Part shown: piece after piece, positions 2,792 through 64,000 of the stretch | Numbering within the stretch: the stretch's first letter is position 1 | Layout: every line of letters begins with the position of its first letter | Source of the DNA: an uncultured virus (IMG/VR IMGVR_UViG_3300017767_000001) | Taxonomy: Duplodnaviria > Heunggongvirae > Uroviricota > Caudoviricetes | Strand: one strand, 5' to 3' | Virus record (IMG/VR): IMGVR_UViG_3300017767_000001 | Span: 1-64,000 of that record | DNA length: 64,000 nucleotides | Notes under the pieces: generated by a model | What the model was told of the DNA's origin: nothing | Seen by the model: only the letters and a program-made list of their open reading frames with translations | The model's database searches: none | Program-made: the position numbers and the translations under genes

Positions 2792-3157
2792 TTATGAATT
2801 AATTGCGGAAATAACACCTGTAAAGTATACAGCAGCTTTGCCAGTTAGCTTGTCAAGAATCTCTTGGTCAACTTCTTGACCTGCATCAGAGATTGCAGCA
2901 GACAAACTTTCAATGGCGGCAGCTTTTGATACACGCCCGCCACTACCACCATTCGAGGCTGTGCTTTTGGCTCCACCAGAAGCGGGGGCTTTCTTTACAT
3001 ACACGCCTGCTTTAGTAAGAATCATACGAACACCGTTTGGTGACTCTTCAAATTCTTCCGCAAGCTCCGCGACGATCTCCATGCTGTTCTCTGGAGTTGG
3101 ATTTGCAGCTTCGTATTGTTCAATCACTGCTGCTTTCTTTTCGTCATCCCATGCCAT
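2792..3157 (-). CDS. D3: T5 D3-like DNA-binding protein
   Basis: MAWDDE...SMEIV.E.A......PNGVRMILTKAGVYVKKA...IDKLTGKAA-like matches T5 D3. Start placed at MAW. Confidence 0.85.
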   Translation of the reverse strand: MAWDDEKKAAVIEQYEAANPTPENSMEIVAELAEEFEESPNGVRMILTKAGVYVKKAPASGGAKSTASNGGSGGRVSKAAAIESLSAAISDAGQEVDQEILDKLTGKAAVYFTGVISAINS

Positions 3158-3233
3158 TCTTCGTTTCCTTCTACGTTGTGAAATGGTAGCCCCGGGACAG
3201 TTTCCCGTGGCCGCTAATTGTTGGTGATAGAAC

Positions 3234-9477: not shown

Positions 9478-9808
9478 ATATTTTGATGAACAATCAAGTC
9501 AATCACAGATTCTTACTAACTAGATCGAAATCGTTTGAATTAGATTTATTCTGGGCGGGGCATAAGGCGAAGCCGTAATGTCCCTAACCATAAATCTGAA
9601 TGAAACTGATTTCGGGATCACCAATCTCTGATTACTTTTGTGCTTCAATTAAGTATTGATTGTGACGAATATTCATAATAAAGATAATCAAATAATTCGT
9701 TCACAATCAAACAACCCCGCTAATAATCATTCTACGATTATTACTGAAAATCCGTCTACTACTTACACAAAACCCTTCAAAATTTGCGCCAATTCGCAAT
9801 TTTTTTAT
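9478..9808 (+). ncRNA. candidate rod-like structured RNA (or ssDNA origin hairpins)
   Basis: Promoter TTGTAA-17-TAAAAT (9443-9471); imperfect hairpin of about 140 nt (9496-9637); second hairpin 9656-9710; stem plus T-run at 9779-9808; no credible ORF. Confidence 0.45.
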
Positions 9809-12464: not shown

Positions 12465-12785
12465 TTAGCTCAAGATCTCGAGCAAAGCTTCAAGATCAAC
12501 CTTGGTCATCTTACCTACAGAAGGCAATTCACGGCCCAGTCGCTCGTTTACAGCGTTGACAAAGAACTCTTTCTTGACAACAGGCTCACCGCGCTTGGTT
12601 ACACGCTCTGCTTTCTGGTAGATACCTAGAGCAGACAATTTGGCGATGATAGAGCGAGGGCTCTTACCAAATTTGTCAGCCAGCGCATCGACAGTAGCAC
12701 GAACAGGGTCAGCAGAGTACTTTGTAGTGATCTCGGCAATCATAGTCTCAGAGTAGTTCTGAGAGGCGTTAGCAGTCATAGTCAT
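12465..12785 (-). CDS. T5 A2-like DNA-binding protein (paralog 2)
   Basis: NYSE.M......Y......TV..LA..FGKSPRSIIAKLS.LGIY.K.....KRGE..V.K; own promoter 12835-12863 and downstream hairpin. Confidence 0.8.
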   Translation of the reverse strand: MTMTANASQNYSETMIAEITTKYSADPVRATVDALADKFGKSPRSIIAKLSALGIYQKAERVTKRGEPVVKKEFFVNAVNERLGRELPSVGKMTKVDLEALLEILS

Positions 12786-12854: not shown

Positions 12855-13283
12855 TTATGTCAAGAGATTTTTTTGGAAAGCTGCAAATAATTCTACTTCT
12901 TTTTCCCTTGCAGCTACCTCCCACGGAGCACTCCAATATTCATCCCAGTTATCAATGTCTCTTTTAAATAGTTCGTCTTGCCACATAGCATGATCGGTTT
13001 CTAACTCAAGCTCGCAGTAAATGTATTGGCGAGCGTGCTCTAGCTCATGAAATATAGTTCGTAGCCAATGAGAACTTTTATTAATACGAAGAATAATTTT
13101 ATGCCCTAGGTCTACAGAATCTCCAAAGTCTGTTTCGTGCTCGCCTTTAAGATATATAGTAATAGGCACAGGAGTGATTCCTAGATCAAGTTCTCCCATA
13201 GCAAAGTCGATCGCAGCTCGAGCTAAGTATCGTTCAGGCATTGACCATGCTTTTTTTGCTTTTACCTTTAACTTATACATCAT
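12855..13283 (-). CDS. HExxH zinc metallopeptidase-like protein
   Basis: IFHELEHARQY ... YW.APWE..A. Confidence 0.7.
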   Translation of the reverse strand: MMYKLKVKAKKAWSMPERYLARAAIDFAMGELDLGITPVPITIYLKGEHETDFGDSVDLGHKIILRINKSSHWLRTIFHELEHARQYIYCELELETDHAMWQDELFKRDIDNWDEYWSAPWEVAAREKEVELFAAFQKNLLT

Positions 13284-13464
13284 CTAACTTTACCTTCTCC
13301 CGCAGCCAAGAGTACAGCTCTACTGCACTGTCATCGTATCCGTTGGGGTACTCTTCGTCTGGTAACAAACAACGTATGGTATAGAGAAAAGCGTCTAGTT
13401 TAGGCACTCCGTCCATACGCATACCTGCGTACAAGCTAAAGGCTTCAAATTGAATATCGTTCAT
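13273..13464 (-). CDS. hypothetical protein
   Basis: GGAGG RBS before MNDIQF; promoter at 13487-13515. Confidence 0.65.
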   Translation of the reverse strand: MNDIQFEAFSLYAGMRMDGVPKLDAFLYTIRCLLPDEEYPNGYDDSAVELYSWLREKVKLDDV

Positions 13465-14002
13465 ATAGTTCCTCCGATTTATAAATATTATACCGGCTCC
13501 GGGTTTCAATGTCAAACAATTTTTGCCATACCCCCAACATAAATTTATTCCGGGGGGCGGCGTACGAAATTGCGGCTGTCAAGTGTTTTTTGCACTTAAT
13601 CTGCCAAAATTTTCGTAAATTTGACACTGTTTGCCCCAGGTTTGCCACAATTTGCCATCTTACACTACCCCGCAGAGACTTGTCAATCGATTTATTTGCA
13701 CCAATTGTGCAAAAAGTACTTGACAATCGTCGGTGTACTACTGTATAATTGGCGCGCCGCGCTTTTTAAAACAATTTGCCCTATTGCCGTAAAAAGTTCT
13801 TGACAATCCCGGGCTTTGCGCGTATACTACCAGGGTGGGCACGGGGTCTGGCACAAAGACTGCACGTTCTTAAAAAAATTTTGCCCATACCCGCAAAAAA
13901 GACTTGACAATCGTCGCTTTTGCACGTATTCTGGCGCAGGTAACACCAATCGAATCGAAACTTCACTTTCGCACTGGCGCCCGCGCGCCAAAAATCGTTA
14001 TA

Positions 14003-14015
14003 AATCAAGGGGTTG
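14003..14015 (+). promoter_or_regulatory. IHF consensus site
   Basis: AATCAAGGGGTTG matches WATCAANNNNTTR. Confidence 0.55.
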
Positions 14016-14031
14016 TGTTCCACGTGGAACC
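14016..14031. promoter_or_regulatory. parS: bacterial chromosomal parS-type palindrome
   Basis: TGTTCCACGTGGAACC, containing the 14-bp perfect palindrome GTTCCACGTGGAAC. Confidence 0.75.
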
Positions 14032-14631
14032 TTATGCGAGCCGTTCGCATAAAGTAGCCAGCAAATTTTTGATCCCGCGTTTTTTGTCGGCATAATCTAC
14101 AGTGTGCCAGTCGGAATCAATAACGCGCTCTTTTAATATGCTCATGCGGTCATAATGCGAAAGTGCGTTTTCATCATTAGCAGAAAATTTCCAATAGGTC
14201 AGGGGCGAATGCTTGCGAGCTATAATTCGGCGTTGCTGTTCTTGTTCCGAAATCGAAAGCCAAAATTTAATAAAGCGCACCGGCTGGTTAGCTTCCCAGT
14301 TTTTATGACGCCGCATAAAATTTTTGTATTGTCGCGGAGTGCACCAGCCATTCAAATGTTGCACCATGCCCCGGCTGTACCAGCTTCGGTCAAAAAACAC
14401 GATGCGATTTTGTCGCGGCAGTTTGGTTTCCCAATAGGGGAGCCAGCTTGCCATCGCTTGTTTTGTCGGTTTGTGCGATAGGCAAACGCTGTAAAGATCC
14501 GGCGGTAGGTAGTGGGTCAATTCTCGAATGGTAGAGGATTTGCCCGCAGTGTCGCGCCCCTCTAAAATTACCGCAACCGGAGCGGAGAGATTCTCCGCGA
14601 GCCGGTTCAGATTAGCTTGCAATTTTTTCAT
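14032..14631 (-). CDS. ppk2: polyphosphate kinase 2 family protein
   Basis: EGRDTAGK Walker A, FFDRSWY Walker B, KFWLSIS..EQ..R, P...WKFS..D. Confidence 0.92.
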   Translation of the reverse strand: MKKLQANLNRLAENLSAPVAVILEGRDTAGKSSTIRELTHYLPPDLYSVCLSHKPTKQAMASWLPYWETKLPRQNRIVFFDRSWYSRGMVQHLNGWCTPRQYKNFMRRHKNWEANQPVRFIKFWLSISEQEQQRRIIARKHSPLTYWKFSANDENALSHYDRMSILKERVIDSDWHTVDYADKKRGIKNLLATLCERLA

Positions 14632-14738
14632 CAGAATCCCCCATTAAACCAGTAGTAAATTGCGGCTCCCCATATAGCGAGATCGGTAATCACGCTATAG
14701 AGGAAATAGAGGGCGGCGAGTGCCGCGCCAAATCTCAC
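14631..14738 (-). CDS. 35-aa hydrophobic micro-ORF
   Basis: MRFGAALAALYFLYSVITDLAIWGAAIYYWFNGGF; GTGA/TGATG coupling on both sides. Confidence 0.55.
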   Translation of the reverse strand: MRFGAALAALYFLYSVITDLAIWGAAIYYWFNGGF

Positions 14739-15238
14739 GCCGTCACCTCAGCATAGTCTACCGGCAGAGGACAACCGTGTATACCCTTCGCTCGCTTGTG
14801 GGCAACAATACCCTCGCCAATCTGCAAGTTAGATTGGCGATAGCTGTTAGTGAAGCGAGCCATCGCGGTTTTGGCAGAGCAGAAATAAAATTCTGATTTG
14901 CCGCCAACCTCAAGCCAACGCTTGTCATATAGCATCGCCTTGTCATCTTTGTTGCGAGCGTGAACAAATTGCTCGGCGGCAAGCACCTGCTCGTTATCGC
15001 CCAGCTTCATTCGCCATACGCGAGCGTGAAGCTCCCCGCGATTGTAGCCGAAAGCGTCCTCAACATCCCGCAAGCACCAAGTCACGCGCTCGATACCACC
15101 GTGTCGCCCGTTCGCGTAAGCGTGTCGGGCATACCCGTTTTTGAAAACGCCAAATTCTAGCAGTTCCCAAACGTAGTGCCAAGCCATACCAGAGATGGGG
15201 GTGATCTCAGGTGCTGTATCTGTTGATCGTAATATCAT
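14735..15238 (-). CDS. pre-early hypothetical protein
   Basis: ATGA-coupled to dmp. Confidence 0.7.
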   Translation of the reverse strand: MILRSTDTAPEITPISGMAWHYVWELLEFGVFKNGYARHAYANGRHGGIERVTWCLRDVEDAFGYNRGELHARVWRMKLGDNEQVLAAEQFVHARNKDDKAMLYDKRWLEVGGKSEFYFCSAKTAMARFTNSYRQSNLQIGEGIVAHKRAKGIHGCPLPVDYAEVTA

Positions 15239-15708
15239 GCTGAAAGCCTCTCGTTAAGTGAAATTGAATCATACGCTTTTATGCCGATGCGGTCAAGCAT
15301 TTTCAAAACGGATTTATTGTCATCATAAAATACCGCAGTCGCGCAAAATTTACCCCATCCCATCGGGCGGGTGCGAGCATAGTTTCGGATCATCTTTTCT
15401 TTTAGATCCGCGTCAGGTGTGGCGTCCCCCTCTCGCCGCGATAGGCAAGCATCCCAGCGCAAGCCATGCTCCCGTAGATATTCGTAATCATGTTCCCCCA
15501 TAACGCGGGCAGTGCAGATCACGATGGTGACATTCTTTTTTGCCAGCCGTCGCCATTGTGCCGCGAGGGGTAGCAGGGTGTCACGCATGATGTTTGCGCG
15601 GGTGTTGTTCTGACGCCATGCCGCAAGATCAAGCGAGCCATCGGGCCGCGTGATCTGTCGGTGTGAGCTGTCGATAACCGTATGGTCAAGATCAAAAATA
15701 AAGTGCAT
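15235..15708 (-). CDS. dmp: HAD-family deoxynucleoside-5'-monophosphatase (T5 dmp-like)
   Basis: FDLDHTVIDSSHR...GSLDL...IMRDTLLPL...ICTARVM...DYEYLR, YDDN; closely parallels remembered T5 Dmp. Confidence 0.85.
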   Translation of the reverse strand: MHFIFDLDHTVIDSSHRQITRPDGSLDLAAWRQNNTRANIMRDTLLPLAAQWRRLAKKNVTIVICTARVMGEHDYEYLREHGLRWDACLSRREGDATPDADLKEKMIRNYARTRPMGWGKFCATAVFYDDNKSVLKMLDRIGIKAYDSISLNERLSA

Positions 15709-15889
15709 AAGAGTAACCTATAATTCCAGCCAGATTCAAGAATACCAGATTGTAAGCCCGAATGTCAAGCGCTTGAACCGTTAATAATACCAACCCACCG
15801 ATAGCGGCCAGCTTGCCCGCGTCGGTATCGATTGCGAAAGGGGCGAGGGCCATAGCCCCCGCTCCGCACCAGCCGATAACCGCTATCAT
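15692..15889 (-). CDS. small membrane protein
   Basis: Hydrophobic, 2-3 TM; coupled to the A2-like gene. Confidence 0.65.
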   Translation of the reverse strand: MIAVIGWCGAGAMALAPFAIDTDAGKLAAIGGLVLLTVQALDIRAYNLVFLNLAGIIGYSYALYF

Positions 15890-16179
15890 CCGATGTTGCT
15901 CAGGATGTTGGACAGCTCGCCCTTGGTGAAGTCGCCTTCGCGGGCAGGCATCGCCAGCGCGGTGCGGATCTCCGCGAGAATGTCGGCCTTGGTAGGGCCG
16001 CGAGAAACGCGAGCGGCGGGAGCCGCCTTAACATACTCAACCCCAAGGGATTGAGCCTTGCTAATGACCGAGCGATGTGATACGCTCCCGAAATCAGAGG
16101 CGAGTTGCTTTGCCTTTGCGAGATTGAGAGGAGCCGCCGCGCGAATCGCCGCAACCATTTTATCAGTATAGTTAGACAT
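15886..16179 (-). CDS. A2: T5 A2-like DNA-binding protein (pre-early copy)
   Basis: MSNYTDKM...LA.DFG.VS.RSVISKA.SLGVEYVK; first gene of the dmp operon. Confidence 0.7.
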   Translation of the reverse strand: MSNYTDKMVAAIRAAAPLNLAKAKQLASDFGSVSHRSVISKAQSLGVEYVKAAPAARVSRGPTKADILAEIRTALAMPAREGDFTKGELSNILSNIG

Positions 16180-16345
16180 AAAGTGCTACCTTTGGTTTTA
16201 GCCGAGAGCCAATCCCCCAGCCGATGCAAGCATTATAACCCAGTTGCCGCCCAAAAGTACAGGCTTTTTTATGGTAATATGTCACAAAAAAATCGCTTGA
16301 CCCCAGGCCGGGGATGTGTTACCCTCCGGGCCGGGGGGGGGCGGT

Positions 16346-16364
16346 AATGAGACTCATTCTCATT
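16346..16364. promoter_or_regulatory. Fur-box-like site
   Basis: AATGAGACTCATTCTCATT versus AATGANAATNATTNTCATT, one mismatch. Confidence 0.55.
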
Positions 16365-16428
16365 TAGCGCTCGCGCGCACCCCAACACGTACTACTTGGG
16401 GATTTTTTGAACCTGCCAAAAATAACGC

Positions 16429-16457
16429 TTGACTTTGATGCTCCCTTCGAGTATAAT
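16429..16457 (+). promoter_or_regulatory. sigma70 promoter
   Basis: TTGACT-17-TATAAT. Confidence 0.85.
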
Positions 16458-16480
16458 TATCTAAAATTAAGGAAAGCGTA

Positions 16481-17074
16481 ATGAAAGTTTTAGTAGCGTG
16501 TGAATTTAGCGGAACCGTCCGGGACTGCTTTATAGCAATGGGCCATGATGCAATTTCATGCGATCTTCTTCCTACTGAAGCACGAGGACCACATATTCAA
16601 GGAGATATTCTTGATATACTTTATGACCCTAGCTGGGATCTTATTATTGCTCACCCTCCCTGCACTTATCTTGCTGCTTCTGGGTTACATTGGAATAAGA
16701 AAATTGAAGGAAGAGCTCAGAAAACCGAAGAAGCCCTTAATTTTATCACAGCCATCTGGGAAGCGCCAGTAGAAAAGCTGTGTATTGAAAACCCGGTGGG
16801 TTGTATCAACACCCGCCTCGATTTTATGCCAAAGCCCCAATATGTCCAGCCATATAATTACGGAGAAGACGCTTCAAAGAAAACTGGTTTGTGGCTGAGG
16901 GGCTTGGCACCCTTAGAACCTACCGAAGTTATAGAACCTCGGTATGTAGATGGAAAACCTCGATGGAGTAACCAAGGTGACACTGGTTATGATAAATTTG
17001 GTGGAGGTCAAGGAAAAGAACGAAGTGTCACATTTTTTGGTATAGCAGCCGCAATGGCACTACAATGGGGATAA
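16481..17074 (+). CDS. DNA cytosine methyltransferase-like protein
   Basis: VLVACEFSG, SCDL, HPPCTYL (catalytic PC), IENPVG, K.TGLW. Confidence 0.8.
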   Translation: MKVLVACEFSGTVRDCFIAMGHDAISCDLLPTEARGPHIQGDILDILYDPSWDLIIAHPPCTYLAASGLHWNKKIEGRAQKTEEALNFITAIWEAPVEKLCIENPVGCINTRLDFMPKPQYVQPYNYGEDASKKTGLWLRGLAPLEPTEVIEPRYVDGKPRWSNQGDTGYDKFGGGQGKERSVTFFGIAAAMALQWG

Positions 17075-17402: not shown

Positions 17403-20400
17403 ATGGCTACTTGGTCTTGGACAGAGTCTTTGTATACACCCGGGTATGGGGTACAGCCCTACTCTAGTTTATCTAGATACACTGCGGTTATAAAATCTTC
17501 GGATACAGTACAGCTAACAACTCAATACACTGGCAGTGTCGCCCTTGCTTACCAAATAAATTACATATCCCAGCCGAATGGATCCTCCACCGTTAATAAC
17601 CCTGACCCAACTCCTTCAGGGTCATTATTGAACAGAACTTGGACTACGAGTAGTTTTTCTGACAATGATTATCATACTCGTTGGTACTGGTATACCACTG
17701 ATACATACGGATACACTAGTCCAAATGCACAAAAATCTGTAAGAATTTTAGTAATTCCTAGTACCGTTGGCTGGGGCTCGGTTTCGGCTAGTATTCAGAA
17801 AGGTTTTAACGGAACAGTTAAACTTTCTATTCCCACTGCTTTTCAAAGCTATTTAACGGGTAGTGGTACCGATAGCGGTGATACTCTTCAAAGCTGGGAA
17901 CAGGCCAAAGATGAAAGATTTTTTTGGAGAGTTTCACAGTCTCAAACCGGCCACAGTACTGCTTATGGATTTACTACTGGCAGTGGTGTATTGACTTCGC
18001 CCACTGATCTCGACGAAATCACACTTAGTCCCACGCTAAGTTCTAATGCAGGGGTTCATTGGGTACACCTATATCATTACGATTACAATGGGCAAACAGG
18101 AACAGCAGACCACCTAATAGATTCTATTTCTTTTAATGTAACCAACCCCGCTGCCTTAGACACTAATATTACTCTAAACTCGACCTCTGTCAATATACTT
18201 AGTGGTGCAAGTAATTACTCCCTTAGTATGACGCAGGGGGGAACTAATACTATTTACTACATTTTAGATACATCAAACCTTGCGAACGGTAGTAATATCG
18301 CCGCAGCGAGCTCTAACTATATAGCAAGAACTTGGAACAGTAATAGTGGTAATAACTCTCGACCTTTTGAAACAGTGCAAGGTAGTGGAGTAATTTCAAA
18401 TGGTTTACCTACTTCGGCCACTGCCACTTTTTATCTTTATGCTGCAAATGGAAACGGTCAAAACAGTATAAGACTAACTACAGGGGACACTCAATATACA
18501 GTAACGCCACAAGCTCAAGCTCCTTCTATTAGCCCCTATAAAACAATTATTACCAATGGATTTCAAATGTGGTCAAATCCATCAGGTACAACGGCTGGAA
18601 CAATTCAATATCAATGGAAAGTACAGGGCGGTGGCTCCGGGTCTAATGGCAACACTGTCCATACTTTTCCGTGGACAGCGGAAATAAATAATTTAGGAGA
18701 AAATGCAGCAGTTGGTACATCATGGAGAGGTACATCTTGGACGGTTCAAGCTCGAGCAACTGTAGATAATGGAGCAAATTACGACTACAGCAGTACTTCT
18801 TCTCCTATAACTCTTCCTGATTATTCTTTTACTACGGTTCCGAATTCTATACAAGAGGGGCAGACTGGAACTTTTACTGTAGCTTCTACAAATGGCCTAG
18901 GCCCTATCTATTGGCAGGCTACTACAACAAGTGGCGGAGATTTTTCAACTTCTAGTGGTCAAGTGGGTTCGGGAACAGGGTGGTCTTCAGGAAGTTTTAC
19001 TGTAACTCCTTCAACAGATAGTGATTCAGACGCTTCAGAAACTGCAACAATAAAGCTATACGTTACTAATATCTTCAATTCTTACAACGACCTTAGCATT
19101 TCCGATACATTCACTATTACAGGGGCTAGTACAACTCCTACTGCAGATACAATAAGTGGAGTCACTTGGTCAAGTACTAATACTGCAAATTCAAATCCAA
19201 CAGTATCTTGGAGTGGGGGCAGTGGTGGTACCTCAGGTAACCCAGCAGTTATAGGAAGTACAACGAATTCACTTCCTAGTTCTTCAAATGGTGCTTGGGT
19301 AACGGACCTTAATCAGACTTCTCCTACAACACTAACTATTGATGCATATGGAAATGCTTATGTAAGAGGGGTTACTTACTATTTTTGGGTTCGAAGAAGT
19401 GCCAATGTAGTCAGTACTCCTTTTACTTCAACAGCTCCGTATATTCCTCTTAGCGACTCTTCAATTACAATTGATACTCCTACTGATAAAAACGGAACTG
19501 ATTTAAATTTAGTTAACGGAGTATATGAAATACCTTCCTCCTATGGAACAGCCGCCGCCGATATTATAGGTATTCCTTTTACCGACGGAGGAACTTATGA
19601 TCAGTACCGAGTTCTTAATGACACAACGAGTCAGTGGCCAGAAAGTGCCAATGTTGGAGCCTCTGGAACATTTAGTCTTGTTACTACTCAGAGCGGAGCT
19701 TTACCCCCTGCAGGAAGTACATATGTTTATAGCTTTTCAGGTAGAAGGCCTCCAACTACCGGAGGTAGCGGAAGTTGGCAAACTGTAAATAGTGGAACAA
19801 CAATACGTATTAAAAGACTTGGCACAGGAACTCCTTATAGCGTTTCTGCTAACCCTACGTCAATTAATGAAGGACAATCAACTACATTTACAGTAACTTA
19901 CTCGAATATTTCTAGCTCTCGAACAGTTAATTATACTATTGAAGGAATTCAGGACCTTGATATATCTTCAGGAGCTCTCACTGGAAGCTTTAGCATTAAT
20001 TCAGGAAGTGGTACAGCAACTACAGTTATTACACTCGCAAATGATAATTTAACAGACGGGCCAAAAACCGCCACCCTAACTTTAGCAAACACTGATAGTG
20101 CCCAAACTTCAACAGGGACGCCAAGTGCTTCTGTATCTATTGCAGATACTTCTACAGCAGGTTCGGGCAGTGGTACTAATCTTAATTCCGGAACGGCTAG
20201 TGATTATGGGTTAGAGATATACAATCCCAGTGGTACTCTAATTATTAACGATATTTCTAGGCTGGGTACTTTTCTTGCTTTTGACTCCCATACATTTACT
20301 GCGAGTTCGACTACTACTACTATGTTTAATGGATTCGACTGCAGTAGTAAATCAACAACAGGTATATTTCTTACAGGCTGGACTGGATATCAGTGGCTAT

Positions 20401-20504
20401 CTCCTTGGATAACAAGAAGTAGTAATGGCATAACTTTAACAGTAAACTCATCAAATTCTACTGGACGATACGGCACAATTGCAGTACATTTAATAAGGTA
20501 TTAA
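17403..20504 (+). CDS. large Ser/Thr/Gly-rich virion protein, candidate receptor-binding protein
   Basis: 1033 aa, beta-rich Ig/Calx-like repeats (SIxEGQ..TFTV); sits where T5 pb5 sits, upstream of terS. Confidence 0.6.
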   Translation: MATWSWTESLYTPGYGVQPYSSLSRYTAVIKSSDTVQLTTQYTGSVALAYQINYISQPNGSSTVNNPDPTPSGSLLNRTWTTSSFSDNDYHTRWYWYTTDTYGYTSPNAQKSVRILVIPSTVGWGSVSASIQKGFNGTVKLSIPTAFQSYLTGSGTDSGDTLQSWEQAKDERFFWRVSQSQTGHSTAYGFTTGSGVLTSPTDLDEITLSPTLSSNAGVHWVHLYHYDYNGQTGTADHLIDSISFNVTNPAALDTNITLNSTSVNILSGASNYSLSMTQGGTNTIYYILDTSNLANGSNIAAASSNYIARTWNSNSGNNSRPFETVQGSGVISNGLPTSATATFYLYAANGNGQNSIRLTTGDTQYTVTPQAQAPSISPYKTIITNGFQMWSNPSGTTAGTIQYQWKVQGGGSGSNGNTVHTFPWTAEINNLGENAAVGTSWRGTSWTVQARATVDNGANYDYSSTSSPITLPDYSFTTVPNSIQEGQTGTFTVASTNGLGPIYWQATTTSGGDFSTSSGQVGSGTGWSSGSFTVTPSTDSDSDASETATIKLYVTNIFNSYNDLSISDTFTITGASTTPTADTISGVTWSSTNTANSNPTVSWSGGSGGTSGNPAVIGSTTNSLPSSSNGAWVTDLNQTSPTTLTIDAYGNAYVRGVTYYFWVRRSANVVSTPFTSTAPYIPLSDSSITIDTPTDKNGTDLNLVNGVYEIPSSYGTAAADIIGIPFTDGGTYDQYRVLNDTTSQWPESANVGASGTFSLVTTQSGALPPAGSTYVYSFSGRRPPTTGGSGSWQTVNSGTTIRIKRLGTGTPYSVSANPTSINEGQSTTFTVTYSNISSSRTVNYTIEGIQDLDISSGALTGSFSINSGSGTATTVITLANDNLTDGPKTATLTLANTDSAQTSTGTPSASVSIADTSTAGSGSGTNLNSGTASDYGLEIYNPSGTLIINDISRLGTFLAFDSHTFTASSTTTTMFNGFDCSSKSTTGIFLTGWTGYQWLSPWITRSSNGITLTVNSSNSTGRYGTIAVHLIRY

Positions 20505-58414: not shown

Positions 58415-60271
58415 ATGGCTCATTCTCGTACATCTCCCTCATTGCCAGTACCTGCTTACGCAGATCCTGCTGATCAATACTCCATTCCGGTCCTCCGGAA
58501 TGGAATTCAGTATATCTATGATAAACAGGGCGGGGCATTTGGTACGGGCGAGTGGGAGGCACAAGTTAGTAAAAATGTAACTGTTGTTACAAAAGTTACT
58601 GACCAGTCGTACGAGCATGAAAATAATCAAACTACAGCAGTTCCTCATAAACCGAACGAAGAACTGCTTACAATACCTGAAATTGATACAAATTTTACTT
58701 CTCTTAAGAAAGGTCTTGTAGGTCTTGAAAAAGAGCTAAAATATTTTGCACACGACTTAGATGTAAAGATAGGAACTGCTCAAGGAGCTGCAAATGCTGC
58801 TGGCACTACAGCAAATAGTGCAGTTGCTAGTAAAATGTCAATATCGGGGGGTACTTTTTTAGGCCCTATACAGTTAAGTGGAGGAGTAGCTATCCCCTTA
58901 GGGGATAATAGCCAGTATTTTGTACACAGTAATTGGGTACAGACAGAGCTACAAAGTTTGAGTGTAGATTTAGCTCCACGCACTGGTCTCACAAAAAATT
59001 TAGGAAGTAGTTCCAATGCTTGGAATAATTTGCATATTAAAGGTGATATTCTTCCTGTAGGAACTATAAGTAGTACTTTTAAAGATGATAATGATAACAC
59101 AATTAGTGTTCGTCCAGCAAATCTTGGAAGCCAAAATCAAGCATTCGATAAATTATTTGTAAAAGATGCAGTATTTTCTGGTAATACAATCACAATTGGA
59201 GAAGCTTCTTTATCTTCAACTTCTGGGGGCGGAGTTCTTTTACCCTTAAATAGTTCCGTAGGAACAGAAGATAATGAAATTCCTGCAAACTTTGCTAACA
59301 CTCTTATAGAGGAAAGATTTGCTGAAAATGCTACAGAGGTTTTAAGAAAAAATTTCCAAGTATCCGGGCAAGTTTCTTTCTTGGACCCAGTAAAATTATT
59401 TTCAAATGGAACAGTAGGAATTGTAAATGCTACAAACGGAACTGAAGGTTTTGTAGGATTTGCTGCGGCAGGAGCAACTGCTCCTAACAGTGTTCCAGTA
59501 GCTATACACGGACTTGTAAATGGTTTTTCAAATCTTACCTCTGGCAGTCTTGTATACTTAAATAATTCTGGTGGAGTTACTCAAACAAAAAGTAGTACAA
59601 CCATAAAAATAGGTGTAGCAACTTCTACTACTGAAATATTTTTATTTAGTAGCTCTTCTATAGATACTTATGTATTAAATGAGTTAAAAATAGATAGATC
59701 AGATTTGTCTGTTATTAACTCCACCCCTTCAGGAAATGGCGTTCTAAACTATAATAGTTTTACTGGGGTTTTCTCTATGACATTTCCTGACTTGAGCACT
59801 TTTGCTACTCAAACTTTTGTTAATAATCAAATAAATACTTTAGTAGATGGAGCTCCAGGAACTTTAGATACTTTAAATGAGCTAGCAGCTGCACTTAATG
59901 ATAATGAAAATTTTGCAAGTTCTATAACTCAAAGTTTGGTATTGAAGGCTCCTTTGTCTAACCCTGCTTTTACAGGGGTCCCCACTGCACCTACCCCTGC
60001 TACAACAAGTAATGATACTACAGTAGCAACAACTGCGTTTGTTAAACAGCAAGCAGGTTCTCAAACTTTAGGCGGACTAACAGATGTAACAATAACTAGC
60101 CCACAGCAAAATCAAGTAATCGCATATGATAGTTCTACTAACGCTTTTCGTAACGTAAATCAATCAGGAGTTGGTGGTGCTGGAGGTACTGTAAATTTTG
60201 TAGTTGATGGGGGTACTGCTACAAGCGTATCTAGTGATGTAATAATATTTCTTGATGGGGGCTCTGCATAA
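58415..60271 (+). CDS. tail fibre protein
   Basis: GAPGTLDTLNELAAALND, P.FTGVPTAPT, VATTAFV fibre motifs. Confidence 0.85.
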   Translation: MAHSRTSPSLPVPAYADPADQYSIPVLRNGIQYIYDKQGGAFGTGEWEAQVSKNVTVVTKVTDQSYEHENNQTTAVPHKPNEELLTIPEIDTNFTSLKKGLVGLEKELKYFAHDLDVKIGTAQGAANAAGTTANSAVASKMSISGGTFLGPIQLSGGVAIPLGDNSQYFVHSNWVQTELQSLSVDLAPRTGLTKNLGSSSNAWNNLHIKGDILPVGTISSTFKDDNDNTISVRPANLGSQNQAFDKLFVKDAVFSGNTITIGEASLSSTSGGGVLLPLNSSVGTEDNEIPANFANTLIEERFAENATEVLRKNFQVSGQVSFLDPVKLFSNGTVGIVNATNGTEGFVGFAAAGATAPNSVPVAIHGLVNGFSNLTSGSLVYLNNSGGVTQTKSSTTIKIGVATSTTEIFLFSSSSIDTYVLNELKIDRSDLSVINSTPSGNGVLNYNSFTGVFSMTFPDLSTFATQTFVNNQINTLVDGAPGTLDTLNELAAALNDNENFASSITQSLVLKAPLSNPAFTGVPTAPTPATTSNDTTVATTAFVKQQAGSQTLGGLTDVTITSPQQNQVIAYDSSTNAFRNVNQSGVGGAGGTVNFVVDGGTATSVSSDVIIFLDGGSA

Positions 60272-63168
60272 TGGTAGCACGAATACAAATAAGACGGGAC
60301 ACTTCAGCAGACTGGACTAGTACTAACCCTACTTTGAGCCAAGGCGAGCTAGGGTATGAAACTAATACTGATAAGTTTAAAATAGGTGATGGAGCAACTA
60401 CTTGGAATAATTTAGGGTATGTAATTTATACTCCCTCTTTTTCAGATATATTAAATAAACCTACCACGGTAGCCGGGTATGGTATTACAGATGCTCTTAC
60501 AAGCGTAGCTTTTAATCAACTTACAGCAAAACCTACAACGGTAGCCGGGTATGGTATTACAGATGCTCTTACAAGCGTAGCTTTTAGTGACTTAACTTCT
60601 ACTCCTAATACCCTATCTGGTTATGGTATTGTTGATGCTTTTAGCGGGGCTTTTTCTGCTTTAACAAATAAACCTAATACTATAGCAGGATATGGTATTA
60701 CAGATGCTTTTAATGGAACTTTTAGCGCTCTTACAGGTAAGCCAACAACGGTAGCTGGATATGGTATTACAGATGCTTTTGATGGAGCATTTAGTTCACT
60801 TACAAATAAGCCAACTACAATAATTGGATATGGTATTACAGATGCTTTTAATGGAACCTTTAGTGCTCTTACAGGTACGCCAACAACAATTGCAGGGTAT
60901 GGTATTACAGATGCTTTTAATGGAACCTTTAGTGCTCTTACAGGAAAACCCACCACTCTAGCAGGATACTCTATTTCAGATGCTGCTCCTATTGCTTCCC
61001 CTAGTTTTACAGGAGTTCCTGCAGCGCCTACTCCCGCACTTGCAACAAATACTACTCAGCTTGCAACCACAGCATTTGTAACTAGTAAAGTACAAGAAGC
61101 AGTAGGAACGTCTCAAAAAATATATTTTCAAGATAATGCTCCTACTTCTTTCTCCGCATTTGATGAAATTTGGATAGATACTAATTCCGGAGCATTATAC
61201 AAACAGGTAGCAGGAACAACAATAGCTCCCTTAGATAGTAGATTTGTTTCAAATTCTTCTAGTAGTATTACAATTCCTGCTCAAGGAGCTTCAGATACCA
61301 GATTAGTTCTTTCTACAGGACTGCCAACGGGAACTGTAGATATAGACCCTCCTTTATTTTTAGAAGCATTTAGTAGTACAGGAGTAAACGTCCCAACAAT
61401 TGGAGTAGTTACCTACCACGATAATACTACACAATCGGTAAATCAAAATTCTTTTACACGTTCATCCGGTAACGCATTTGATAAGAAAGTAAAAAGTTTT
61501 ACATATACATCAGAAGGAACTTCAAACTCTAGTACTTCTCATATTACTTTGACTGTTTCGGGGGTTCCTGAGTGGCAAATACAAGAGTCTCATGTACAAG
61601 CAAAAATAGATGCAATAATTGACTCTGCTCCCGGAGCTCTCGATACTCTAAATGAATTAGCCGCAGCAATAAATGATGATGCTAGTTTTGCTTCAACAGT
61701 TACTAATAATCTTTCTTTAAAAGCACCTCTAGCATCCCCAGCACTCACAGGAACACCAACAGCCCCTACAGCAACAGCAGGTACAAATAGTACTCAAATT
61801 GCAACAACTGCTTTTGTAAATAATAAAATTGAATTAACTGATTTAAGTGTTACACAAAACTCATCCTCTGGAACAGGGGCTTTAAGTTATAACAATTCTA
61901 CAGGTGTATTTTCGTACACTCCCCCTGCAAGCGTAAATTTTGCAAACCTTACAGGTAAACCTACTACAGTATCAGGGTACGGTATTACTGATGCACTTAC
62001 TACAGGTGCAGATGCAGATATTGGTAGTAATGATTTTATTACTACAGGCAAAGTTTATTTTGCAAATATGTTTTCACAGGTTGCAAATCTTCCTAGTGCT
62101 ACTACATATCATGGTATGTTTGCTCATGTACATGCTACAGGTGCTGCTTATTTTGCTCATGGAGGTAATTGGGTACGGCTAGCAAATCAATCAGAAGTAT
62201 TTAGTGGTGCATTTAGCTCACTTACAGGCAGGCCGACTACTCTTACAGGGTATGGTATTACAGATGCTGCACCTTTAGCTAGTCCAACTTTTACAGGAAC
62301 GCCTTCAGGGCCTACAGCTACTAGCGGTACAAACACAACTCAGTTTGCAACAACAGCTTTTGTTCAATCAGCAATATCAGGATTTAGTGCTGGAGCAAAT
62401 GTATCTGTATCTGGTAGCGCTCCTAGTAGTCCTTCTGCAGGAGATTTATGGTTTGATGACGATGCTCTTGTACTTTATGTTTATTATGCGGATGGAAGCT
62501 CAAACCAGTGGGTACAAACTAACCCAAGTTCTGTAGACCCAAGTGGTTTTGATGGGGCATTTAGTAGTTTATCGGGCAAGCCCACTACTCTTACAGGGTA
62601 TGGTATTACAGATGCAGCAGCGGCAAACTCTCCTACGTTTACAGGAACACCCGTTGCTCCCACAGCAAGCAGTGGAACAAATACTACTCAGCTTGCAACT
62701 ACAGCATTTGTACAACAAGAAGTATCTTCAGCAGGAGGGTATAATAATGCAAATGTAGATACTCACCTAAATAGAGGTACAGCAAACACAGGAGAGATAT
62801 TAAGTTATAATGGTAGTGATTATGACTGGATAGCACAACAAACACAAGAATTTATTAAAGCATATCGCTTTAATGATACTTTAGCAACGAATACTGGGAC
62901 TAAAAGATTATATCTACAAAAGGGATATAGCTTGAAAAAAGTTCATGCTTATGTTGACACTGCCCCAGCAGGTTCAAATGTAAATTTAACTATAAAAAAG
63001 AATGGATCAAATTTACAAAATATAAGTGTTTTAGCGGGACAAACAACTGCTAGCTTAACTTCTTTGTCTCATTCGATTACTGCAAATGACTATTTAACAA
63101 TTGATATAACTCAGGTAGGCTCTTCAACAGCGGGCGAAAATTTATACCTAGTGTTTACATTTAACTAA
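60271..63168 (+). CDS. tail fibre protein with Mtd/hyaluronidase-like N-terminus
   Basis: IQIRRDT...W...NP.L..GELGYET.T.KFKIGDG; KPTT.AGYGITDA repeats. Confidence 0.88.
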   Translation: MVARIQIRRDTSADWTSTNPTLSQGELGYETNTDKFKIGDGATTWNNLGYVIYTPSFSDILNKPTTVAGYGITDALTSVAFNQLTAKPTTVAGYGITDALTSVAFSDLTSTPNTLSGYGIVDAFSGAFSALTNKPNTIAGYGITDAFNGTFSALTGKPTTVAGYGITDAFDGAFSSLTNKPTTIIGYGITDAFNGTFSALTGTPTTIAGYGITDAFNGTFSALTGKPTTLAGYSISDAAPIASPSFTGVPAAPTPALATNTTQLATTAFVTSKVQEAVGTSQKIYFQDNAPTSFSAFDEIWIDTNSGALYKQVAGTTIAPLDSRFVSNSSSSITIPAQGASDTRLVLSTGLPTGTVDIDPPLFLEAFSSTGVNVPTIGVVTYHDNTTQSVNQNSFTRSSGNAFDKKVKSFTYTSEGTSNSSTSHITLTVSGVPEWQIQESHVQAKIDAIIDSAPGALDTLNELAAAINDDASFASTVTNNLSLKAPLASPALTGTPTAPTATAGTNSTQIATTAFVNNKIELTDLSVTQNSSSGTGALSYNNSTGVFSYTPPASVNFANLTGKPTTVSGYGITDALTTGADADIGSNDFITTGKVYFANMFSQVANLPSATTYHGMFAHVHATGAAYFAHGGNWVRLANQSEVFSGAFSSLTGRPTTLTGYGITDAAPLASPTFTGTPSGPTATSGTNTTQFATTAFVQSAISGFSAGANVSVSGSAPSSPSAGDLWFDDDALVLYVYYADGSSNQWVQTNPSSVDPSGFDGAFSSLSGKPTTLTGYGITDAAAANSPTFTGTPVAPTASSGTNTTQLATTAFVQQEVSSAGGYNNANVDTHLNRGTANTGEILSYNGSDYDWIAQQTQEFIKAYRFNDTLATNTGTKRLYLQKGYSLKKVHAYVDTAPAGSNVNLTIKKNGSNLQNISVLAGQTTASLTSLSHSITANDYLTIDITQVGSSTAGENLYLVFTFN
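60455..60985 (+). repeat. tandem ~60-66 nt repeats encoding KPTTxxGYGITDA
   Basis: GGTATTACAGATGCT recurs through this span, with further copies near 61980, 62250 and 62600. Confidence 0.9.
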
Positions 63169-63179
63169 GGAGAAAATAT

Positions 63180-64000
63180 ATGTATGCTAAATTAGTATTC
63201 CCCGGCGACACCAAAACAGGGGAGCAGGTTAGGGACATTGTAAGGCTAATTACAAGCTCTACATCAAGTACTGCAAGCCTTTCAGGACTTGAGTTTATTA
63301 CAACCGCACAATCTACAGTATCAGGCGGAAATAGCGGATGGAGTTTACACTCTAGTTCGCCTTCTATTCCAAGTTCGGGGACCGCTGTAAGTGCAGCAGA
63401 CTCAAACTTTACACTAGAAGCTCCGTGTGTAACGAGTGGAAAGACAAAGTACTGCAGTATTCATGTAAATGGAAGCTGGACTCATGCGGCTGCAACTCAT
63501 ACTGGAGATGACTTTGCATTTACAGTGGCAAGTATTATAGATCCTGGTGCTGCTACCGAATTGATCAGTAATGGCTATAGTGGTACGAGTTCTAGTTATG
63601 GCGAAAACTATGGAATCTGCGGAAATACAGAGCATTCAGATCAAGGAATTCACATCTTTGCAGATAACCGAAGAATTATTATTCATGGAAAAGATGGAAA
63701 AAACCATACTGTAACATTAATTAATGGAGAATTTGCTGAAACCGATACCACAACTCGATATACTCTTGTTCCTCAAGCTCAAATGTGTTTAAGTAGTATG
63801 TATCATATTTCAGATCTAAGAAATGTTAGTTATCGAGGAGATACTTATACTCCTTGGGACGGCTTTAGCTATACAGTTCCTTTTATTAGCTTTTTAGAGT
63901 CAATGTACTCTTATCAAAGTGGTTGGACTGGAAAAATAAGATTTACAGGGTGGCATCAATACAACGATAGAGCTAGCTACGGTGGAAAATGCCGTTATCG
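63180..64000 (+). CDS. virion-region protein, partial (runs off right edge)
   Basis: AAGGAG RBS, MYAKLVFPGDTKTGEQVRDIVRLIT... Confidence 0.65.
   Translation, partial: MYAKLVFPGDTKTGEQVRDIVRLITSSTSSTASLSGLEFITTAQSTVSGGNSGWSLHSSSPSIPSSGTAVSAADSNFTLEAPCVTSGKTKYCSIHVNGSWTHAAATHTGDDFAFTVASIIDPGAATELISNGYSGTSSSYGENYGICGNTEHSDQGIHIFADNRRIIIHGKDGKNHTVTLINGEFAETDTTTRYTLVPQAQMCLSSMYHISDLRNVSYRGDTYTPWDGFSYTVPFISFLESMYSYQSGWTGKIRFTGWHQYNDRASYGGKCRY

Follow-up and report, generated by a model that had tools for sequence, protein, structure and literature searches.

The window analyzed here, a 64,000-nt stretch of DNA, corresponds to bases 1–64000 of a 94,590-bp IMG/VR record that is 97% complete according to CheckV. 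It contains a block of five minus-strand genes running from 16179 down to 14032, which forms a GC-rich module (45–62% GC versus ~40% in the flanks). The block opens with two small ORFs taken from the ORF lists (97 aa at 15886–16179 and 65 aa at 15692–15889), and homologs of both keep their order in related genomes. These are followed by a dmp homolog (15235–15708) encoding a HAD-type phosphatase (deoxynucleoside-5′-monophosphatase; Pfam HAD_PNKP, 8e-6; phrog_415). My1 dmp matches the genome at 15457–15699 on the minus strand (E 3.2e-11, 46% identity over 85 residues), and in the records of T5 and My1 dmp is the terminal gene of the pre-early set. Next comes a 167-aa ORF (14735–15238) that is present in only some of the relatives and has no Pfam or PHROG match and no lead in the ESM Atlas. 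The last gene of the block, ppk2 (14032–14631), encodes a 199-residue polyphosphate kinase 2 (Pfam PF03976, E 2e-38), whose relatives at 51–96% identity are found exclusively in marine viral or metagenome DNA.

Adjoining ppk2 is a 16-bp sequence, TGTTCCACGTGGAACC (14016–14031), with a 14-bp perfectly palindromic core; the plus strand at 14032–14034 reads TTA, the reverse complement of the ppk2 TAA stop codon. This 16-mer is letter for letter the same (16/16) as parS1 and parS4 of Pseudomonas aeruginosa, the sequences of which are given in Table 1 of PMC4368675. It agrees with a perfect palindrome at 15 of 16 positions and conforms to TGTTNCACGTGNAACA, the 16-bp inverted repeat by which chromosomal-type parS sites are recognized. 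There is no other match within three mismatches in the 64-kb window (0.16 expected, with none of 100 shuffled sequences reaching the observed count), nor within two mismatches in the whole 94,590-bp record, and the match is far beyond chance. Direct reading of the sequence thus agrees with the preliminary description both in placing the site immediately after the ppk2 stop and in taking it for a canonical chromosomal-type parS. In P. aeruginosa parS1–parS4 cluster near oriC beside parAB, whereas the site in this lytic phage genome is an orphan.

An IHF site abutting parS had also been described, and a consensus match, AATCAAGGGGTTG (14003–14015, plus strand), is indeed present with the letters and coordinates reported. 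However, the IHF consensus WATCAANNNNTTR occurs six times in the window against 5.8 expected, 52 of 100 shuffled sequences contain at least six, and the match beside parS is kept in only four of 18 representative lineages (the window itself, L003, L007, and L165). Because of this chance-level count and limited retention we treat the IHF match as fortuitous. A second palindrome, TGGCGC-N4-GCGCCA (13975–13990; flanked by TTTT...AGT on the minus strand), is separated from parS in the window by a variable 26-nt spacer and constitutes the first unit of a repeat array. Its TGGCGC and GCGCCA arms are identical in all 18 aligned lineages, whereas the center and the spacer vary, and a TTGAC or TTGAT (TTGAY) motif is present within the variable spacer in 15 of the 18, in most relatives taking the place of the IHF match. 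The locus contains two invariant modules, parS and the TGGCGC..GCGCCA palindrome.

The array further includes three tandem promoter-like repeat units on the plus strand (13694–13932; repeat families D1 and D2), with −35/−10 elements at 13720–13749, 13800–13828, and 13904–13932. All three are directed towards parS and against ppk2, and the array recurs in relatives. No long ORF crosses 13516–14031, which consists of the three tandem repeat units plus palindromes, and an Rfam search over 13000–16600 gave no match. The individual units (13694–13990; e.g. L011:4150–4450) are ~80–104 nt long and contain an A-rich tract, consensus −35/−10 elements, and a TGGCGC-N3-6-GCGCCA palindrome right at the start point. 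This palindrome looks like the operator of a putative regulator, since its arms never vary and its center does. The first ~21 transcribed bases past the −10 element of the middle promoter (13829–13850) read ACCAGGGTGGGCACGGGGTCT, a sequence that is near-identical in the window and in L002, L003, L007, L008, and L010 despite differences in the surrounding DNA.

Approximately 2.3 kb from parS, the window contains a T5/My1-type left-end signature, GCTAAATGAGAATGAGTCTCATTACCGCC (16340–16368, minus strand); together with the next base it shares 29 of 30 letters with bases 13–42 of My1, where base 1 of the record is the annotated left end. The same motif is located 2.0–2.9 kb before parS in six related lineages (L002, L012, L162, L163, L165, and L166). 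From these matches the 29–30-nt motif at 16340–16368 is likely a packaging or terminus signal of this clade, and the physical left end is predicted to lie near 16380. At the other side is a minus-strand consensus promoter (13515–13487) preceded by GGGGG..GGCAAAA, the whole segment (13487–13535) being the predicted inner boundary of a ~2.9-kb terminal repeat; by eye, the arrangement GGGGG..GGCAAAA..TTGACA..TGAAA is similar to what stands at the right edge of the terminal repeats in T5 and My1, MAFFT having given a poor alignment. Motifs of the AATGAGAA/ATTCTCATT/ATTCGCATT family cluster in the annotated T5 iss (9587–9713) and near the edge of the My1 repeat, and members of the family directly precede parS in L012/13, L166/167, L173, and L176.

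Taken together, the dmp block, the My1-type left end, the likeness at the right edge, and the iss-family motifs point to 16380 to ~13490 as probably a miniature T5-type terminal repeat of ~2.9 kb, in which parS would occupy the position equivalent to iss. Logan contigs break or continue alternatively at 16335–16400 in three runs, a weak hint of a terminus, and contig depth between 13.4 and 16.35 kb is 1.3–3 times that of the flanks in four runs, a ratio confounded by co-occurring strains. The first description, which put parS at the edge of the pre-early block, is likewise upheld: the edge is the inner one, and the block is pre-early in type by its dmp homolog, its left-end signature, and its repeat-rich untranslated region. 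Two-step transfer is nonetheless only putative for this phage, because there is no A1 homolog: My1 A1 has no match in the genome at E values up to 10. Matches to A2 are weak (E 1e-3 and 2.5e-3) and lie outside the block, at 2957–3175 and 12546–12674. A cluster of DnaA boxes is also absent, with six TTWTNCACA sequences in the window compared to 7.5 expected, and a single box in the region (13706–13714).

The remainder of the genome encodes a T5-like siphovirus gene set by PHROG comparison, including a split NAD-dependent ligase, terminase, portal, tape measure, and tail fibers, together with D-type replication genes for a DNA polymerase, primase, DnaB-like helicase, SbcCD-like nuclease, and ribonucleotide reductase. 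Its large terminase shares no more than ~51% identity with its counterparts in Demerecviridae such as My1, Serratia phages, and Vibrio Pogseptimavirus, and a near-identity DNA search of named phages gave no match. Among the 77 ORFs compared with PHROGs (scans of 52 and 25) there are no integrase, repressor, or partition families, in agreement with the earlier view that the phage is lytic. An Rz-like spanin indicates a diderm host. Labels of metagenome-assembled genomes (MAGs) on look-alike fragments conflict, one being Paracoccaceae and another, on a 3-kb fragment, Rubripirellula, and no host is drawn from them. The DNA of the window is contained in 20 metagenome runs (marine, seawater, or viral) belonging to 10 studies, and three of these runs may be its source.

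Relatives were collected with two independent anchors, PPK2 (20 viral contigs) and the dmp-like gene (19 contigs), with four contigs common to both. With the PPK2 anchor, a parS sequence (up to two mismatches to TGTTNCACGTGNAACA) is present 0–530 nt past ppk2 in 11 contigs (L002–L009 and L011–L013); it is absent from L010 and L014–L020, and L021 is cut short. With the dmp anchor, parS (up to one mismatch) is found 750–1,600 nt downstream in 15 of the 19 contigs, and the four lacking it hold just 2 to 1,154 nt of downstream DNA, L177 ending inside ppk2. In a 3-kb MAG fragment (L157) parS adjoins the ppk2 stop codon, as it does in the window. Altogether, 40 related loci (267,889 bases) contain 30 sites within one mismatch of TGTTNCACGTGNAACA, distributed over 27 loci from 23 different contigs, whereas in the same loci neither the reversed pattern nor any of 30 scrambled palindromes with matching composition gave a match. 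The location is syntenic, at the end of the dmp/ppk2 block and 22–67 nt before the invariant TGGCGC..GCGCCA palindrome. In the five larger relatives there is one parS locus per record (5/5), and three lineages (L011, L173, and L178) have a tandem pair of sites. None of 121 viral loci with the exact 16-mer (ending in ACC) has it in the palindrome context of this clade.

When 31 sites (including that of the window) were compared with 60 nt on either side, they resolved into 21 distinct 136-nt contexts, across which the two 40-nt flanks have mean pairwise identities of 0.29 and 0.28; the corresponding 0.89 within parS is inflated, as the sites were found through their match to the consensus. Positions 2–4, 6, 7, 10, 11, and 13–15 of parS are without any variation. 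Positions 5 and 12 switch as a pair (C/G in 11, T/A in six, and mixed in one of 18 aligned lineages), and the remaining 12 specified positions hardly vary; against strict conservation, two sites (L007 and L165) have a mismatch within the CACGTG core. The sole common change is thus a symmetric C/G to T/A swap between two natural forms of parS: that of P. aeruginosa parS1/parS4, shared with the window, and that of parS2/parS3, TGTTCCACGTGGAACA, carried by some of the phage relatives. Judging from its recurrence at one place amid diverged flanks and from this pattern of change, parS is under selection.

The site is also independent of ppk2, as it is present in blocks that have no ppk2 (L162, L163, and L165) and where ppk2 has been displaced past the array. 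In L172 (5902–7378) and L175 (5985–7204), ppk2 is situated beyond both parS and the palindrome array, as though the gene crossed the boundary and parS stayed. It had been suggested that absence or degeneracy in close relatives would refute a role for the site; that refutation fails, as the site is conserved in 23 contigs, with L010 and L014–L020 as exceptions. L010 matches L008 in the downstream DNA yet is without the 16-mer, a clean absence, and the seven contigs L014–L020 form a sister subclade without parS; both L010 and this subclade retain the repeat array. It follows that parS is dispensable. Vibrio has ParABS, and the Vibrio T5-like phages PG07 and X1, as well as My1, contain no parS within two mismatches. 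In one metagenome run (labeled X1), a co-occurring strain has 148 other letters in place of 13993–14104, ~110 bases that include parS and the 3′ end of ppk2.

As the preliminary description noted for the window, there is no parA or parB, and this now extends to the whole genome: six-frame HMM searches found neither ParB_N (PF02195) nor ParA-type AAA_31 (PF13614), although control genomes respond. Both families are likewise absent from four related records, two of which are rated 100% complete. A perfect parS in an uncultured marine T5-like phage lacking its own partition genes suggests that the phage probably borrows the ParB of its host. Since the recognition of parS by ParB is shared widely across bacteria, the phage site should be bound in any host that has ParB. 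On balance we favor, with some confidence, the 16-mer being a functional and selectively kept site, predicted to load host chromosomal ParB. The absence of parS from L010 and from the seven-contig subclade, its absence from PG07 and X1, and the discordant MAG labels count against this reading.

If host ParB is indeed used, the arrangement of the locus suggests how. The site would lie at the end of the first-entering pre-early-type block, a position corresponding to the injection-stop region of T5, and probably within the short terminal repeat, such that there would be two copies per virion DNA. Once this DNA is inside the cell, ParB-CTP dimers of the host could load at parS and spread over the 2–3-kb module, tying it into the host ParB/ParA/SMC origin machinery. 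The sequences show what the site is, that it is unique, that it is conserved with symmetric covariation, that the phage lacks ParB and ParA, and how the site is placed among T5-type landmarks; that ParB binds there, that a terminal repeat exists, and all that would follow from these we infer. The most likely benefit would be that phage DNA is held or positioned, for example by anchoring of the first-entered segment; alternatively, during slow or suspended infections the phage genome could remain associated with the nucleoid and the daughter cells, in the way phi29 does by means of Spo0J. That the benefit consists in holding, positioning, or carrying DNA in slow or suspended infections is a tentative proposal, to which we give well below an even chance. 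An anchor or stop of first-step transfer, parallel to the DnaA model of Davison for T5, is a distinctly less likely benefit, and what is left of the probability given to ParB loading falls to roles in which the pre-early block is silenced or insulated, or ParB/SMC is titrated. ParB clamps slide off free DNA ends, which makes a position close to the termini of linear phage DNA a poor fit.

The principle of a host-type parS on a virulent phage is already known from phi29. As described in PMC2731898, five host-type parS sites occur in phi29, and its genome is segregated into the prespore with the help of Spo0J, host ParB being used to move or keep the phage genome. The Bacillus phages phi29 and Nf, by the same account, resemble the present phage in being virulent and having chromosomal-type parS without a ParB of their own (PMC2731898). 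The combination seen in phi29, host-type parS with no phage ParB and no lysogeny module, is thus found here as well. In contrast, the five sites of phi29 serve to trap its genome in the prespore of a sporulating Firmicute, whereas this phage has one locus, at the edge of a pre-early block, and a diderm marine host. Because the spanin points to a diderm host, the spore-entrapment role is not simply transferable. Several sites placed towards the genome ends would be expected of the phi29 type; here there is one locus per assembled record, and there would be two copies near the ends only if the predicted terminal repeat is real. The literature searched yielded no paper joining parS with T5-like phages or Demerecviridae, and the earlier statement that parS is undescribed for T5-like phages stands for that literature, host-type parS on a virulent phage being known from phi29 (PMC2731898).

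T5 halts DNA transfer after 8% of its genome. The nature of this stop has been a question for decades, and to our knowledge host DnaA boxes are the sole cis-acting clue so far. Davison describes eight DnaA boxes in the T5 iss (10.1101/866236) and proposes that host DnaA binds there. By comparison with that account, T5 iss/Repeat Region 3 and the present locus are both untranslated, rich in repeats or palindromes, and situated at the inner edge of first-entering DNA, and each holds sites for a host origin-region protein, DnaA boxes in the one and parS in the other (10.1101/866236). The AATGAGAA/ATTCTCATT motif family is common to T5 iss and this clade. There are differences, however, in that T5 has ~8 DnaA boxes, a 10-kb repeat, and both A1 and A2, whereas here there is no DnaA cluster, no A1, and a predicted repeat of only ~2.9 kb with parS. 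In addition, dmp is divergent from the late genes here but in tandem with them in T5.

One reading of these parallels, a special case of ParB binding, is that parS replaces the DnaA-box array of T5 and that ParB–parS on the first-entered DNA arrests or anchors transfer until pre-early proteins act. That parS stands precisely where the last pre-early-type gene gives way to the untranslated repeat array speaks for it, as do the iss-family motifs that directly precede parS in some relatives, the absence of a DnaA-box cluster, and the binding of host DnaA proposed for T5 iss (10.1101/866236). On the other hand, Davison's model is itself a proposal, A1 is lacking and the A2 matches are weak (E about 1e-3), and L010 and the sister subclade keep the repeat array without parS; we consider a stop of this kind unlikely. 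A reading in which the phage uses its own non-ParB DNA-binding protein, which happens to read the parS sequence as an operator, receives some encouragement from the adjoining second invariant palindrome and the promoter array, which suggest that phage regulators act here, and from the weak A2-like matches at 2957–3175 and 12546–12674. For this the phage would have to have converged on a 16-bp host site in each of the two natural forms, the analysis identified no protein as a candidate, and parS is found a single time in each genome, unlike the other palindrome, which is repeated; all of this makes it improbable.

To two further readings we give very little credence. The site could be a non-functional remnant of host DNA that hitch-hiked with ppk2 or with the GC-rich block, and the base composition of the block, the fact that ppk2 was not found in named T5-like phages, and the survival of L010 without parS are consistent with such an origin. 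But parS persists while its flanks have decayed to ~28% identity, it persists without ppk2, and the nearest cellular PPK2 homologs are at most 38% identical to that of the phage, with none of four cellular PPK2 loci having parS within one mismatch; a passive remnant is therefore most unlikely, and the occurrence of only two natural parS forms also argues against it. Alternatively, the palindrome could form a hairpin that terminates or stabilizes the pre-early transcript and resemble parS by coincidence, a view for which its location right after a stop codon in the window and in most relatives might be cited. A mere terminator is argued against, however, by a stem of just 5 bp with a 4-nt loop and no U-run, by a regional fold that is unexceptional relative to shuffled sequences (z −0.79), and by the near invariance of the would-be loop within the CACGTG center. 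Moreover, the stem varies at a single pair, and there only between the canonical parS alternatives, there is no Rfam match, and the spacer sequences of several relatives contain a separate, variable hairpin followed by a T-run; this hairpin reading is highly improbable.

If the ParB-loading reading is right, a site for a different host origin protein is maintained by a clade of abundant marine T5-like phages at a place like that of the T5 iss, and would provide a second, independent handle on the question of how T5 transfer stops. It would also mean that virulent phages of Gram-negative marine hosts borrow host ParB, phi29 being the only example known. A broader speculation, to which we attach a low probability, is that T5-like phages in general may use sites for host origin-region proteins as the stop or anchor of the DNA that enters first, with DnaA boxes in the enterobacterial T5 and parS in the marine clade. 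Host ParB clamps loaded at parS might then arrest or hold the incoming DNA and bridge the two copies of the terminal repeat, drawing the genome ends towards each other.

Elsewhere in the genome, a 1033-aa ORF without a PHROG match (17403–20504) is located just after a DNA methyltransferase gene at the head of the late-strand block, a region that is a possible place for an A1 substitute. ARAGORN predicts no tRNA genes in the window. Its right end (60271–64000) and the adjoining 64–79 kb of the genome contain a long run of paralogous tail-fiber-like genes, identified by PHROG comparison, with internal repeats that are 75–87% identical by self-BLAST.
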